A stretch of 64,000 bases of DNA from Dehalococcoidia bacterium (GTDB lineage Bacteria > Chloroflexota > Dehalococcoidia > Bin125). Shown here piece by piece: positions 42,181 to 46,347 of the stretch. The position numbers and the translations under genes are program-made. Where the stretch lies: contig CAXXNO010000006.1 of assembly GCA_963663235.2 (NCBI GenBank), forward strand, positions 32,001 through 96,000, in the 5' to 3' direction. Within the stretch, counting starts at the first letter, position 1, and each line of letters begins with the position of its first letter. Under the pieces are notes generated by a model. The model was not told where the DNA came from and made no database searches. It saw only the letters and a program-made list of their open reading frames with translations.

Positions 42181-42956
42181 CCTCGGATGCCGCCAAGGCT
42201 CGCTCGGTCGCGGACGGTGGGGCCGACGATCGCCATCCCCAGGCGGCCTTTGCGAATTACTTGACGACGCTGGAGCCTGCGTTCCTGGAGAATTATTCGC
42301 GCTTCGGCGCTCGATCGCAGCGCGTGGTGGCGGAGGCGCTGCTGCGCGAGTTGGTCCTGGCCCCGCCCGACGACCGGAAGATTCTGGGCATGCGCATCGT
42401 CGAGGAGTACCTGGACGCCGTCGGCGGGATCATGGCGCTCCACGCGGCGTTCCTCCGGCGTGACCGGGCACCGCTCCTGGCGACGTTCCTGGCCCACCGG
42501 CTCAACGTCGGTTCCATTGCCGCCTTCAGCGCGCAGGTGGCCGAGCGTCTCCCTGAGCACATCCTGCGCGACCTGGGACTCCCTACCGGCGACGACGTGG
42601 AAGCGTTGCGTCCCGAGGTCTCGAAAACGGAATACCGGCAGTTGCGGGCAGCCGTTGAATCCGTTCCGCAAGGGTTGACCCGCGCCGCCCGTGCCGAACA
42701 GAGCGTGTTGCTGCAATTGGCGGAAGGGTTGCGCAAGTCGAGCACCCTCACGAATACGCTCGACTGGCTGCCGGACCGATCGATGGCCCCCGACCAAGTC
42801 GCGTTAATGGTCCTGGAGGAGAAGCGCTACCGACTGGCGACCCATTCCCTGACGATCAACGAACAACAGTTGGAGCAATTCGTCCTGGCGATCGGCACTA
42901 TCAGCCAAGCCGAGCGTGACATGTGCTGGCTCTCCCTTCGCGCCCACGACTCCTGA
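42177..42956 (+). CDS. Hypothetical protein
   Basis: 259-aa ORF coupled to mutM (ATGA overlap), with AAGGAG RBS. Confidence 0.7.
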   Translation: MTSDAAKARSVADGGADDRHPQAAFANYLTTLEPAFLENYSRFGARSQRVVAEALLRELVLAPPDDRKILGMRIVEEYLDAVGGIMALHAAFLRRDRAPLLATFLAHRLNVGSIAAFSAQVAERLPEHILRDLGLPTGDDVEALRPEVSKTEYRQLRAAVESVPQGLTRAARAEQSVLLQLAEGLRKSSTLTNTLDWLPDRSMAPDQVALMVLEEKRYRLATHSLTINEQQLEQFVLAIGTISQAERDMCWLSLRAHDS

Positions 42957-43020
42957 CCCTTGTCTGACCCGACCGTTGCCTCCACACTGCGCGCCATGCG
43001 GAAGTGGGCCGGAGGCGCCC

Positions 43021-43278
43021 AAAGCGCCGATCCGGGTGAACTGCGTGGCGCCCGGCTGGGTTGCGAGCGAGCTCACCAGCGAGCCCCCGCGCTGGTACGT
43101 TGAGCGCTCCGAGCAGCACGCCGCCATGCGACGCTTTGCGCAGCCGGAGGAGGTGGCAGGAGCCGTGGTCTCTCTTCTCTCAGACGCGGCCGGTTACGCG
43201 ACGGGCTCGGTCATCGACGTGAGGGGCGGGTACGGGATGTGGTCGCTGAATGCATCGCCGCCGGAACAGGGCGGTTGA
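43021..43278 (+). pseudogene. C-terminal remnant of a short-chain dehydrogenase (SDR)
   Basis: IRVNCVAPGWV...RRFAQPEEVAGAVVSLLSDAAGYATGSVIDVRGG. The Rossmann N-terminus and YxxxK motif are missing. Confidence 0.75.
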
Positions 43279-43281
43279 CGC

Positions 43282-44283
43282 GTGCCGGACGCGATCACCG
43301 CCGTCCCGGGGATCAAGGTGGGGCACTGGAGCGACCGGGGCGGCGCGACCGGCTGCACCGTTGTGCTCTGCGAAGATGGGGCCGTGGCCGGCTACTCCTC
43401 GCGGGGCGGTGCACCCGGCACCATCGAGACGGACCTGCTCCGGCCCGAGAACGCGATCGCCAAGGTGCATGCCGTCCTCCTCACAGGTGGGAGCGCCTTC
43501 GGCCTGGCCGCAGCGGCGGGCGTGCGCGAGGCGCTGGCTGAGCGCGGGGCCGGGCTGCGCCTAGCTTTGGACTTGCCGCCCATCCCCATCGTCACCGGAG
43601 CCGTACTGTTCGACCTCCGCATCGGTTCATCGACGGCGCGTCCGACGGCAGAATCCGGCCGGCTGGCGGCGGAGCGGGCGAAGAGCGGCGCGGTGGCGCA
43701 GGGCAGCGTGGGTGCGGGGACGGGGTGCACCGTCGCGAAATTGGCGGGGGCGGAGTTCGCGCTCAAGGGCGGGATCGGGACCGCCGCACTGGCCCATCGC
43801 TCTGGCTTGGTCGTCGGGGCTCTGACGGCCGTCAACTGCATCGGTGACGTGCACGACCCCGATAGCGGCGCACTCATCGCCGGGCCGCGCGGTCAGCGTC
43901 GAGGAGAGTTGCGCTCGGGCGCAGACGTACTGGCGGCGCAGGCGTTCCCGCCGCAGGCAGCCGAGGCCGTCACGAATACCACGATCGCCGTCGTCGCGAC
44001 GAACGCCCGCCTCGATAAGGCTCAAGCCACGCGACTGGCGCTGATGGCGGAGGACGGCTTCGCGCGGGCGATCCGTCCCGCGCACACGCCCCTCGACGGC
44101 GATTGCGTCTTCGCGCTCGCGACGGGCACGCTTGGGGTCAACTTGAACCTGGAACGTCTGACGCTGCTCGGCAGCATGGCGGCTACGGCGCTGGCGGACG
44201 CGGTCGTGCGTGGGGTGACGGAATCCACGCGGCTGGCCGGCGTACCGGCCATCCGGAACTGGCGAGCCCCGGCCGGCCACTAG
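43282..44283 (+). CDS. P1/DmpA-family peptidase (S58)
   Basis: ITAVPGIKVGH, TGCTV, RGGAPGT, GGSAFGL, GSVGAGTG, NTTI, HTPLDGD. Confidence 0.92.
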   Translation: MPDAITAVPGIKVGHWSDRGGATGCTVVLCEDGAVAGYSSRGGAPGTIETDLLRPENAIAKVHAVLLTGGSAFGLAAAAGVREALAERGAGLRLALDLPPIPIVTGAVLFDLRIGSSTARPTAESGRLAAERAKSGAVAQGSVGAGTGCTVAKLAGAEFALKGGIGTAALAHRSGLVVGALTAVNCIGDVHDPDSGALIAGPRGQRRGELRSGADVLAAQAFPPQAAEAVTNTTIAVVATNARLDKAQATRLALMAEDGFARAIRPAHTPLDGDCVFALATGTLGVNLNLERLTLLGSMAATALADAVVRGVTESTRLAGVPAIRNWRAPAGH

Positions 44284-44286
44284 GCG

Positions 44287-44334
44287 GTCGCTCATCGTGG
44301 CGCTCATAGCGGCGCGCACAGCGGCGCTCATAAC
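44287..44334. repeat. Four tandem 12-bp repeats directly upstream of the panB promoter
   Basis: GTCGCTCATCGT-GGCGCTCATAGC-GGCGCGCACAGC-GGCGCTCATAAC. Confidence 0.75.
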
Positions 44335-44340
44335 GGGTCG

Positions 44341-44370
44341 TTGACAGCCGATCGTCGGGCTGGTTACATT
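44341..44370 (+). promoter_or_regulatory. Sigma70 promoter of panBC
   Basis: TTGACA-18 nt-TACATT. Confidence 0.7.
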
Positions 44371-44375
44371 GCCCG

Positions 44376-44498
44376 CGCAGCCGACCGCGAGCACGGCGGT
44401 GAGCAATGCGCGCTATCTCTCGAGGCCGCCGTGATGGCGACCAGTGGCTCCAGGCGTCGCCAGCTCACGCCCGCTCGTATCGCTCGCGGGCGTTTTTT
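44376..44498 (+). ncRNA. Structured panB leader (attenuator/riboswitch candidate)
   Basis: P1 44392-44400/44425-44433; P2 44435-44441/44456-44462; terminator 44467-44474/44486-44493 plus T-tract; competing antiterminator 44395-44404/44463-44471. Confidence 0.65.
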
Positions 44499-44591
44499 GT
44501 GCGCGCCGCCGCGCTGTGAGCAGGCGGCCGGGAGCGTGTCCGAGCCGGGGCGGCGAGTTGCCCCTCGGAGGCGGATGGAAGGAGAGCCCGC

Positions 44592-45470
44592 ATGTCCCGA
44601 CGTTCCATCCACTCCCTCAAAGCGATGAAGCGCCGCGGCGAGCGCTTTGCGATGGTCACCTGCTACGACTATCCCACCGCCCGCCTTGCCGAAGAGGCGG
44701 GGATTCCCGCGCTGTTAGTGGGCGACTCGCTGGGTACGACCGTGCTGGGCTACGAGACGACCGTTCCCGTGACGCTGGACGAGATCCTGCACCACACGAG
44801 ACCCGTGGTGCGCGCGACCAGCCGGGCAGTCGTGGTGGCGGATCTCCCGTTCGGCACGTACCAGACCGGCCCCGAGGACGCCATCCGCAGCGCCACGCGC
44901 CTGCTGCAGGAGGGCGGGGCGACGGCGGTGAAGCTGGAGGGCGGCAGCCACATTGCGCCCACGGTTGAGCGACTGGTCAAAGTGGGCATCCCGGTGATGG
45001 GCCATATCGGCTTGACGCCGCAATCGGTCAACCAGCTCGGTGGCCACAAGGTGCAGGGCAAGACCGCCGCGCAGGCCGTCAAGCTTCTGAACGACGCCCT
45101 GGCGCTGGAGGCGGCCGGATGTTTCGCGGTTGTTCTGGAGGCGATCCCGGCGCCGGTCGCGGAGATCATCAGCAAGCGGCTGGAGATGCCGACCATCGGC
45201 ATCGGGGCGGGCCCGCATTGCGACGGCGAGATCCAGGTCCTGCACGACATCCTTGGCTTGCTGGAGGACTTCCGCCCGCGGCACGCGAAGCGCTATGCCG
45301 AATTGGGCTTGCGAATTCGTGAAGCGCTCACAGCCTATCGTGACGAGGTCGCCGCCGGCGTGTTTCCCACCATGAGCCACGCCAGTGCCGTCGATGACGA
45401 GGCCATGGCCGAGATCGCGAGCCTCGCACGGACGAAGGAGCCGACCACTCCGACCGCCTTCGACTGGTAA
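44592..45470 (+). CDS. panB: 3-methyl-2-oxobutanoate hydroxymethyltransferase
   Basis: TCYDY, LVGDSLG, VADLPF, VKLEGG, GHIGLTPQ, TIGIGAG. Confidence 0.97.
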   Translation: MSRRSIHSLKAMKRRGERFAMVTCYDYPTARLAEEAGIPALLVGDSLGTTVLGYETTVPVTLDEILHHTRPVVRATSRAVVVADLPFGTYQTGPEDAIRSATRLLQEGGATAVKLEGGSHIAPTVERLVKVGIPVMGHIGLTPQSVNQLGGHKVQGKTAAQAVKLLNDALALEAAGCFAVVLEAIPAPVAEIISKRLEMPTIGIGAGPHCDGEIQVLHDILGLLEDFRPRHAKRYAELGLRIREALTAYRDEVAAGVFPTMSHASAVDDEAMAEIASLARTKEPTTPTAFDW

Positions 45471-45483
45471 CGGTGACGCGAGC

Positions 45484-46347
45484 ATGGAAACGTTGGGTAC
45501 CGTTGCGGCCGTCCGCGCGTGGCACAGAGCGGTACAGGGCGACGTAGGATTTGTCCCCACGATGGGGGCGCTGCACGATGGGCACCTGGCCCTGGTGCAT
45601 CGCGCGCGGCGCGAAAACGACCAGGTGATCGCCTCCATCTTCGTCAATCCGTTGCAATTCGGCCCCAGCGAAGACGTCGATCGCTATCCGCGCGCTATCG
45701 AAGACGACAGCCGTCTGTTACGCGAGAACGGCGTGGACGCACTGTTCCTTCCCCAGGTCCAGGAGATATACCCCGATGGGTTCCGCACCTCGGTGGAGGT
45801 CACCGGGCCGCTCACGGCCGTCCTGGAAGGCGCGGCCCGGGCGGGACATTTCGCCGGCGTGACGACCGTCGTCAGCAAACTGCTCTTCATCACACAGCCG
45901 ACGCGTGCATATTTTGGGATGAAAGACGCCCAGCAGCTCCTCGTCATCGCGAAGTTCGTCCATGACTTGGACATCGCTGTCGAGATCGTTCCCGTTCCAA
46001 CGGTCCGGGAACGAGACGGCCTGGCGATGAGCAGCCGCAATCGCTACCTGTCGGCTGAAGAGCGCAAGGCGGCGGCTGCCATCTCCCGCGCGCTCGAGGC
46101 GGGGCGGGCGCTCTTTGACCAAGGAGAGCGCGACGCGGCCGCGTTGCAGAGCGCAGTACACGAAGTGCTGAACGCCGAACCGTTGCTGCAGACGGAGTAC
46201 GTGTCCTGCGCCCACCTGCCGACGCTGCGCGAACTCGATCAGATCGACGAGCGGGCGCTGCTATCGCTGGCGGTGCAGTGCGGAGCGGCTCGCCTGATCG
46301 ATAATCGCTGGCTCGGGGTCCGCGGAGATGCCGTTCCTCTGCATTAG
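45484..46347 (+). CDS. panC: Pantoate--beta-alanine ligase
   Basis: FVPTMGALHDGH, SIFVNPLQF, HFAGV, KDAQQ, GLAMSSRN, RLIDN. Confidence 0.97.
   Translation: METLGTVAAVRAWHRAVQGDVGFVPTMGALHDGHLALVHRARRENDQVIASIFVNPLQFGPSEDVDRYPRAIEDDSRLLRENGVDALFLPQVQEIYPDGFRTSVEVTGPLTAVLEGAARAGHFAGVTTVVSKLLFITQPTRAYFGMKDAQQLLVIAKFVHDLDIAVEIVPVPTVRERDGLAMSSRNRYLSAEERKAAAAISRALEAGRALFDQGERDAAALQSAVHEVLNAEPLLQTEYVSCAHLPTLRELDQIDERALLSLAVQCGAARLIDNRWLGVRGDAVPLH

Follow-up and report, generated by a model that had tools for sequence, protein, structure and literature searches.

On balance, the leader of the panB-panC operon in the source genome (G000) is probably a transcription attenuator derived from the pan RNA motif (RF01749), which would be OFF when a hairpin at the 5' end of the transcript is held closed by an effector that may be a protein or a metabolite. 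The window, which is the whole 64,000-nt stretch of DNA analysed here, contains a G+C-rich leader of ~125 nt between the panB promoter and an intrinsic terminator. At the start of this leader lies a stem-loop (44377..44404, + strand) that resembles hairpin 1 of the pan RNAs of other Dehalococcoidia, that is conserved in a sister genus, and whose 3' strand is complementary to a segment overlapping the 5' arm of the terminator. Judged by these features, the element is best regarded as a divergent form of the pan leader, undetected by Rfam and equipped with a terminator platform, and not as a new class.

Genomic context of the panB leader

The leader precedes panB (44592-45470, + strand; PF02548, 3e-111) and panC (ORF 45385-46347, + strand; PF02569, 6e-100). 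The longest ORF of panC overlaps the 3' end of panB by 86 nt (45385-45470), and translation of panC probably begins at a later start codon. The conserved upstream neighbour of the leader is an S58 (DmpA-family) peptidase gene (43282..44283, + strand). Just 5' of this gene, an ORF at 42916-43278 resembles the C-terminal part only of a short-chain dehydrogenase, which could reflect gene truncation or a wrongly placed start. From the S58 stop to the -35 box of the panB promoter runs a 12-nt tandem repeat, GCGGCGCTCATA (44284..44336, + strand, 4.3 copies), whose four copies stand flush with the -35 box. Sequencing run X14 carries one 12-nt unit fewer upstream of the panB promoter, which indicates that the repeat copy number differs between strains. 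The repeat could provide protein-binding sites or act as a slippage-prone spacer, and it may lie outside the switch itself. The panB leader has no second copy in the source genome, and it is neither a repeat nor a mobile element.

The panB leader has its own promoter and intrinsic terminator

The sequence-only reading had described a panB leader with a promoter and an intrinsic terminator, and both look real and exceed what is expected by chance at 68% G+C. The promoter is of the sigma-70 type, TTGACA-18-TACATT (44341..44370, + strand; -35 box 44341-46, -10 box 44365-70), and it is the only sigma-70-like site in 43800-45000, compared with 0.0 in 50 shuffles. Transcription likely starts at ~44376-44378, ~7 nt past TACATT. 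The TCGTTGACA of the promoter is kept in genus g5, and TTGACA..TACATT is kept in genera g6 and g10. No promoter-like site was found between the terminator and panB (44499-44591).

The terminator (44467..44498, + strand) consists of an 8-bp G+C-rich stem (44467-74 with 44486-93), an 11-nt loop and a T6 run (44493-98). The source genome (2.75 Mb, 68.4% G+C) has just 57 runs of six or more T, counting both strands, and the terminator hairpin has a predicted energy of -16.9 kcal/mol and is flush with its T6 run, which together suggest that the terminator is real. The T6 run is unchanged in the strain variants of four public sequencing runs, whose contigs are ~99.7% identical and differ within the leader solely by an extra letter right after the T run; these variants contribute no covariation in the leader. 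The panB ATG (44592) lies 93 nt past the T run and is preceded by a Shine-Dalgarno sequence, GGAAGGAGAG (44577..44594 including the start codon, + strand). We rejected a leader peptide encoded by the 37-aa ORF that extends from ATG 44406 to TGA 44519, because this ORF runs through the terminator, has a badly spaced Shine-Dalgarno sequence, does not occur in g5 and is put out of frame by the indel seen among strains. Elsewhere in the genome and outside the window (G000:C12:164153-164277), five G+C-rich units of a hairpin and T5, spaced at 30 nt, form a tandem terminator-like array.

The 5' end of the leader resembles hairpin 1 of the pan motif

The hairpin at 44377..44404 reads, from 5' to 3', GC, an A.G mismatch plus GCCG, bulged A44384, CC, the loop GCGAGCAC, GG, CGGU(G), bulged A44402 and GC (strands GCAGCCGACC-GCGAGCAC-GGCGGUGAGCA). 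The CCGACC..GGCGGUGAGCA portion matches hairpin 1 of the Dehalococcoidia pan RNAs, for which we extracted a canonical set of 32 instances (loci L207-L238). Canonical hairpin 1 is UGC CAyCG A CC, a loop, and GG CGGUG A GC (UGCCAyCGACC-loop-GGCGGUGAGC), and the G000 hairpin is identical to it in the strings CCGACC and GGCGGUGAGC(A) and in both bulged A residues. Its defects are an A.G mismatch among the five middle pairs and a missing outermost pair. The hairpin also lies where a pan hairpin is expected, given that pan RNAs precede panB, panC or aspartate decarboxylase operons: it is on the sense strand 188 nt 5' of the panB ATG, and it starts 36 nt after the first base of the -35 TTGAC. The canonical motif is likewise located at the 5' end of the transcript, with a -35 TTGAC 33-39 nt 5' of hairpin 1 in 26 of the 32 canonical leaders.

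The likeness was assessed with a sequence-blind descriptor of the bulged-A stem-loop (3 bp, 5 bp, A, 2 bp, loop, 2 bp, 5 bp, A, 3 bp), which recovers every one of the 32 canonical pan RNAs and matches 25 of them twice. The descriptor matches the G000 leader once only, at 44376-44405 and with one mismatch. One-mismatch matches arise by chance at 0.64/kb (~0.15 expected in the leader) and strict matches at 0.075/kb, such that the bulged-A stem-loop typical of RF01749 is present in the leader and is not significant taken alone. Sequence identity within the stem adds to this likeness, as the pattern CGACC-N3-10-GGCGGTGAGC occurs four times in the source genome (5.5 Mb over both strands), once in the 215-nt leader, and its reversed control occurs 0 times; the pattern was picked post hoc, with the match already seen.

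The sequence-only reading had pointed to the pan motif and proposed an Rfam search. The pointer was right, in that the leader resembles pan hairpin 1; the search itself gave no match. The Rfam pan model (RF01749, gathering cut-off 36.2 bits) did not match the window at gathering, did not match 44250-44620 or the g5 loci at E<=10, and had 0 matches in a search of the G000 genome. The families that did match the leader at E<=10 (Betaproteobacteria toxic sRNA, AgvB, SgrS and mir-2774) were rejected as driven by the terminator. We also built one covariance model per hairpin, R1 for hairpin 1 and R2 for hairpin 2, using 31 sequences for each. R1 scored 10.0 bits on the leader with eight of ten model pairs standard, a match that ranks 22nd of 32 in the window (E 7.1); in the whole source genome R1 had no match at E<=1. 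Restricted to the leader, R1 gave an E value of 0.032, with an unrelated match of 10.4 bits adjacent. On seven independent high-GC panB leaders, R1 found hairpin 1 in six (20.9-26.4 bits), which indicates that the model works on high-GC sequence and that G000 is truly an outlier.

The tandem arrangement of RF01749 is not recognisable in the G000 leader, where the descriptor has a single match; R2 had no match there or in the g5 leaders. The best R2 match in the genome (23.1 bits, C2:22745-22772) lies within a NuoL-like coding region and was taken as chance. Between the terminator and panB, GCGCUGUGA (44511..44519, + strand) is conserved in the 5' strand of a hairpin-2-like element of g5, and no 3' strand partner for it was found in G000. 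Given that the scores of the family model and of R1 and R2 are not significant, the element is not a formal member of RF01749. Taking all of the evidence together, we nevertheless consider it likely that the leader block 44377-44404 is of pan ancestry.

The hairpin is conserved in a sister genus

Among 41 genomes of the family, panB was detected in 13 (G000 counted). A scan of metagenomes for PanB found a best relative that is 66% identical, which leaves no leaders of the same genus for covariation analysis. Leader sequence is common only to the sister genus g5 (three genomes, PanB 72% identical). An alignment of G000 with the three g5 genomes (A1) shows that they share the -35 box, 44376-44404, GCGCUGUGA and the Shine-Dalgarno region. 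The block 44377-44404 was found in G000 and these three genomes only, and it holds no informative stem changes. A search with the leader DNA among 40 relatives returned, g5 leaders excepted, short chance matches that fell mostly in genes, and the pattern CAGCCGACCGC-N4-9-GCGGTGAGC occurred among 401 genomes of the class in G000, in one g5 genome and in one further genome, G065, where the match lies inside a coding region and was discarded.

The g5 leaders (L032-L034) are ~125 nt long, and all three match the descriptor at hairpin 1 (R1, 12.6-13.3 bits). They are like the G000 leader in the -35 box, in the 28-nt hairpin, A.G mismatch included, in GCGCUG(U/C)GA and in the Shine-Dalgarno region. 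Unlike G000, they have no T-run terminator, and two of the three contain a complete second bulged-A hairpin. This strict second hairpin, GCG CUGUG A CC .. GG CGCAG A CGA, abuts the Shine-Dalgarno sequence and keeps the pairs of canonical hairpin 2 (CCG CUUGG A UC .. GA CCGAG A CGG) despite two-sided changes. Its position next to the Shine-Dalgarno sequence suggests that control in g5 may be translational. In genera g6 and g10, TTGACA..TACATT is followed by a leader of ~65 nt, and the leaders of g2 and g4 are short too; no pan-like hairpin was found in these four genera of family f1 by eye or with R1 and R2. No counterpart of the terminator or of 44405-44510 was found in any other genome searched.

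The structures proposed from the sequence alone are not the conserved element

All strings listed in the sequence-only reading were located where it had placed them, to within 1 nt. That reading had described two hairpins, P1 and P2, in the leader. P1 (CACGGCGGU/GCCGCCGUG; 44392..44433, + strand) pairs 44392-400 with 44425-33 (9 bp including one G.U) and has an energy of -17.5 kcal/mol in isolation, which makes it the most stable local hairpin. P2 (UGGCGAC/GUCGCCA; 44435..44462, + strand) pairs 44435-41 with 44456-62 (7 bp, -11.6 kcal/mol). The strings of both are present, and as a sensing structure they are not supported, being unconserved in g5 and folding at chance level. The conserved part is a different hairpin, that at 44377-44404, which overlaps the 5' arm of P1. 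The 3' arm of P1 and P2 have no counterpart in g5 or in any genome searched. P2 could be a decayed second pan hairpin, in that its 5' half agrees with hairpin 2 (UGGCG A CC); in the 3' half, the bulged base is C and the outer positions do not pair.

Predicted fold energies gave a similar picture. The 124-nt leader from 44377 has a minimum free energy (MFE) of -53.4 kcal/mol with a z-score of -0.01, and 92 of 200 shuffles were as good. The 90-nt segment that precedes the terminator and contains P1 and P2 gave a z-score of +1.41, which is worse than shuffles, and the 224 nt from the start site to panB gave +0.57. The sole segment below shuffles was one of 130 nt that includes six probably untranscribed bases (z -1.95). 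P1, P2 and the overall fold are therefore no better than chance.

Complementarity between the hairpin 3' strand and the terminator

The alternative pairing of 44395-404 with 44463-71 described in the sequence-only reading is present, as is the complementarity of CCGCGAGC (44385-92) to GCTCGCGG (44482-89). The first pairing joins the 3' strand of the hairpin (44395-44404) to its antiterminator partner GCUCACGCC (44463..44471, + strand) through 9 bp with one bulged G, and it overlaps the 5' arm of the terminator. The core duplex has an energy of -16.8 kcal/mol, a value reached by 69 of 9107 natural 13-mer windows, and the duplex between the 5' block and the terminator region has an energy of -35.5 kcal/mol, matched by 45 of 1000 dinucleotide shuffles and by 71 of 3745 natural 34-nt windows. 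By these counts, the pairing potential of the 5' block with the terminator is modestly unusual. It places the terminator 5' arm opposite a hairpin 3' strand, as in the canonical pan leaders of the class, via hairpin 1 and not hairpin 2. The OFF-switch logic put forward in the sequence-only reading is reasonable to this extent, since the 5' part of the leader can pair with the 5' arm of the terminator.

Predicted energies leave the structures of the switch close to one another. The MFE of the full leader, -53.4 kcal/mol, corresponds to the antiterminated form, and folds that contain the terminator lie at -47 to -50 kcal/mol. At the decision point, when the transcript has reached 44475, the form with the hairpin closed (-37.1 kcal/mol), P1 (-36.4 kcal/mol) and the antiterminator (-37.0 kcal/mol) are within ~1 kcal/mol. 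P1 also rivals the pan-like hairpin for GGCGGU: both sequester it, and P1 is the stronger in isolation (-17.5 versus -10.9 kcal/mol), which makes the folding pathway ambiguous in silico.

We propose the following model for the panB-panC leader, which would descend from the pan motif (RF01749) and would have drifted beyond the reach of the family model. The first 28 nt of the transcript are predicted to fold as a pan-type hairpin with two bulged A residues, and the intrinsic terminator sits ~60 nt past it. The 3' strand of the hairpin (GGCGGUGAGC) can pair with GCUCACGCC, which spans the 5' arm of the terminator. With the hairpin held closed by the pan effector, the terminator would form and transcription would end short of panB (OFF); an OFF switch is the most economical reading. 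In the open state, the 3' strand of the hairpin would pair with the terminator 5' arm, with CCGCGAGC/GCUCGCGG lengthening the duplex, and this antiterminator duplex would permit RNA polymerase to read through to panB (ON). The promoter, the terminator, the complementarities, the conservation of the 5' hairpin in g5 and its likeness to canonical hairpin 1 are observed; homology to pan, the occurrence and direction of switching, and the effector are inferred.

Canonical pan leaders in Dehalococcoidia are linked to terminators and to S58 genes

The Rfam pan model matched 39 of 151 sampled genomes of the class, 25 of them over the cut-off, and 0 of the 6 genomes sampled from the source family. Among the 32 canonical leaders, 20 carry a downstream hairpin with a run of at least four T behind it, a count in which just 63 nt of downstream sequence was covered for 20 of the 32. 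The 3' strand of hairpin 2, CCGAGACGGC, can pair with the 5' arm of this downstream hairpin, GCCUUCUCGG, and the resulting duplexes average -13.0 kcal/mol versus -7.7 kcal/mol for an upstream control. Read from these sequences, the canonical leaders of the class have the make-up of a classic terminator/antiterminator platform.

An S58 peptidase gene ends <600 nt upstream of panB in 20 of 159 panB loci. Strict pan-type hairpins occur in the S58-panB spacer of six of these 20 (L108, L140, L142, L148, L191 and L195). R1 recovered hairpin 1 in L140, L191 and L195 (20.9-21.8 bits) and had no match in L148 at E<=1. Descriptor matches in L044-L046 and L127-L129 were set aside because they lie inside the panD coding sequence and are not leaders.

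In some Dehalococcoidia, an S58 (DmpA/beta-aminopeptidase-family) gene is the first gene after the canonical pan motif, and linkage of S58 and pan was seen in the source window and at L209, L211, L212, L215, L140, L148, L191 and L195. PanD (PF02261) was not found in the source genome, which is 91.9% complete. The recurrent link between pan leaders and S58 genes, together with the missing PanD, hints at the origin of beta-alanine, for which the S58 enzyme might be a source. At L207, L208, L210, L213, L214 and L216, the gene after the pan motif encodes a putative Rossmann-type protein that begins ..IGFIGAGTVG.. and may be a ketopantoate-reductase-like enzyme.

Alternative explanations for the leader

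We weighed four other explanations of the leader. The reading closest to the structures proposed from sequence alone is a new small-molecule riboswitch unrelated to pan, in which P1 and P2 form an aptamer and a ligand that stabilises P1 frees the terminator. P1 is indeed the most stable local hairpin (-17.5 kcal/mol), with a 5' arm that overlaps the antiterminator strand, and a CoA riboswitch would fill a gap recognised in the Breaker 2022 review (PMC9971707). This explanation is nonetheless very unlikely, in that the 3' arm of P1 and P2 fall in the stretch without a counterpart in g5 or elsewhere among the genomes searched, the 90 nt that hold them fold worse than shuffles (z +1.41), and the two are plain hairpins with no conserved pocket, whereas the conserved bases are in 44377-44404. 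If the block is instead a decayed relic of pan, the terminator would serve as a constitutive, leaky brake or stop read-through from the S58 gene, with no switching. The weak covariance model scores, the broken pair, the missing hairpin 2 and the chance-level fold energies would all suit a relic, as would the short leaders with no pan-like element in other genera of the family. We consider a relic unlikely, however, given that the 28-nt block has been kept between genera at 72% PanB identity while the rest of the leader is unalignable, that the hairpin 3' strand fits the terminator 5' arm better than ~98-99% of natural windows, that the T6 run is kept across strains, and that a strong terminator between the sole promoter and an essential vitamin operon requires some means of read-through.

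The promoter and terminator bound a unit of ~120 nt, which could also be a free-standing trans-acting sRNA, with panB transcribed separately. The weak, sub-threshold resemblances to sRNA families would point the same way but are driven by the terminator only. With no promoter-like site in 44499-44591, with the same promoter directly driving panB in g6, g10 and g5, where the terminator is absent, and with a single-copy element that has no conserved sRNA body, we give the sRNA little credence. The conserved block may equally be viewed as DNA, namely an operator in which the inverted repeat ACCGC..GCGGU (+8 to +24) binds a repressor. An inverted repeat directly after the start site occupies a classic roadblock position, and the 12-nt tandem repeat beside the -35 box hints at more protein binding. 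Against an operator, the canonical helix is kept with G.U pairs (CAUCG/CGGUG, CAUUG/CGAUG), shows full compensatory swaps (GCGGU/ACCGC), and is asymmetric through its bulged A residues and strand-specific, which argues for RNA rather than a DNA palindrome and makes an operator highly improbable. The pan-derived attenuator remains the reading that we favor.

Discussion

The G000 leader shares with the pan RNA motif its place upstream of panB and panC, a stem with two bulged A residues, nearly identical strands (CCGACC / GGCGGUGAGC), a position at the transcript 5' end at an equal distance from the -35 box, the S58-panB neighbourhood, and an intrinsic terminator thereafter whose 5' arm is complementary to the hairpin 3' strand. 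It differs from pan in being invisible to the family model, with one stem pair broken, and in having one recognisable hairpin, whereas most pan RNAs are tandem. It further differs in the ~60 nt of unrelated sequence (the 3' arm of P1, and P2) before the terminator, in building the antiterminator from hairpin 1 instead of hairpin 2, and in a 93-nt spacer between the terminator and panB that retains a vestige of the 5' strand of hairpin 2.

Riboswitch platforms of the terminator/antiterminator type contain helices that exclude one another, and the 3' part of the sensor helix can pair with the terminator 5' arm. The G000 leader is like these platforms in having mutually exclusive helices and an OFF state that corresponds to a closed sensor. 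Unlike them, it is a predicted switch only, and its effector may be a protein. In the paper that introduced pan RNAs, they were interpreted as a motif that likely binds a dimeric protein (Weinberg et al. 2010, PMC2864571), and a metabolite of the pantothenate or CoA pathway is the alternative pan effector. No riboswitch for CoA or pantothenate is known according to the Breaker 2022 review (PMC9971707), which calls this a notable blind spot. Our literature search found no report identifying a ligand or a protein for pan RNAs, and a 2024 paper on CoA in B. subtilis makes no mention of a riboswitch, RNA motif, RNA switch, leader, pan RNA or terminator.

Since its description in 2010, pan has remained an orphan motif, a problem that the G000 locus does not solve. 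As a natural version of pan with one hairpin, the leader could be a minimal test construct. It is quite unlikely that a single bulged-A hairpin is a sufficient sensor that gates the terminator in response to a metabolite of the pantothenate/CoA pathway; if true, the leader would be the smallest natural vitamin B5/CoA riboswitch and a minimal construct for the pan ligand hunt. More broadly, leaders that are probably pan-derived and lie beyond the sight of the Rfam model exist in high-GC Dehalococcoidia. The wiring of pan RNAs to terminators may already have been described in the 2010 supplement (PMC2864571). In Dehalococcoidia, the pan motif is wired to terminators via the hairpin 3' strand, which argues that it acts in cis as a transcription attenuator.
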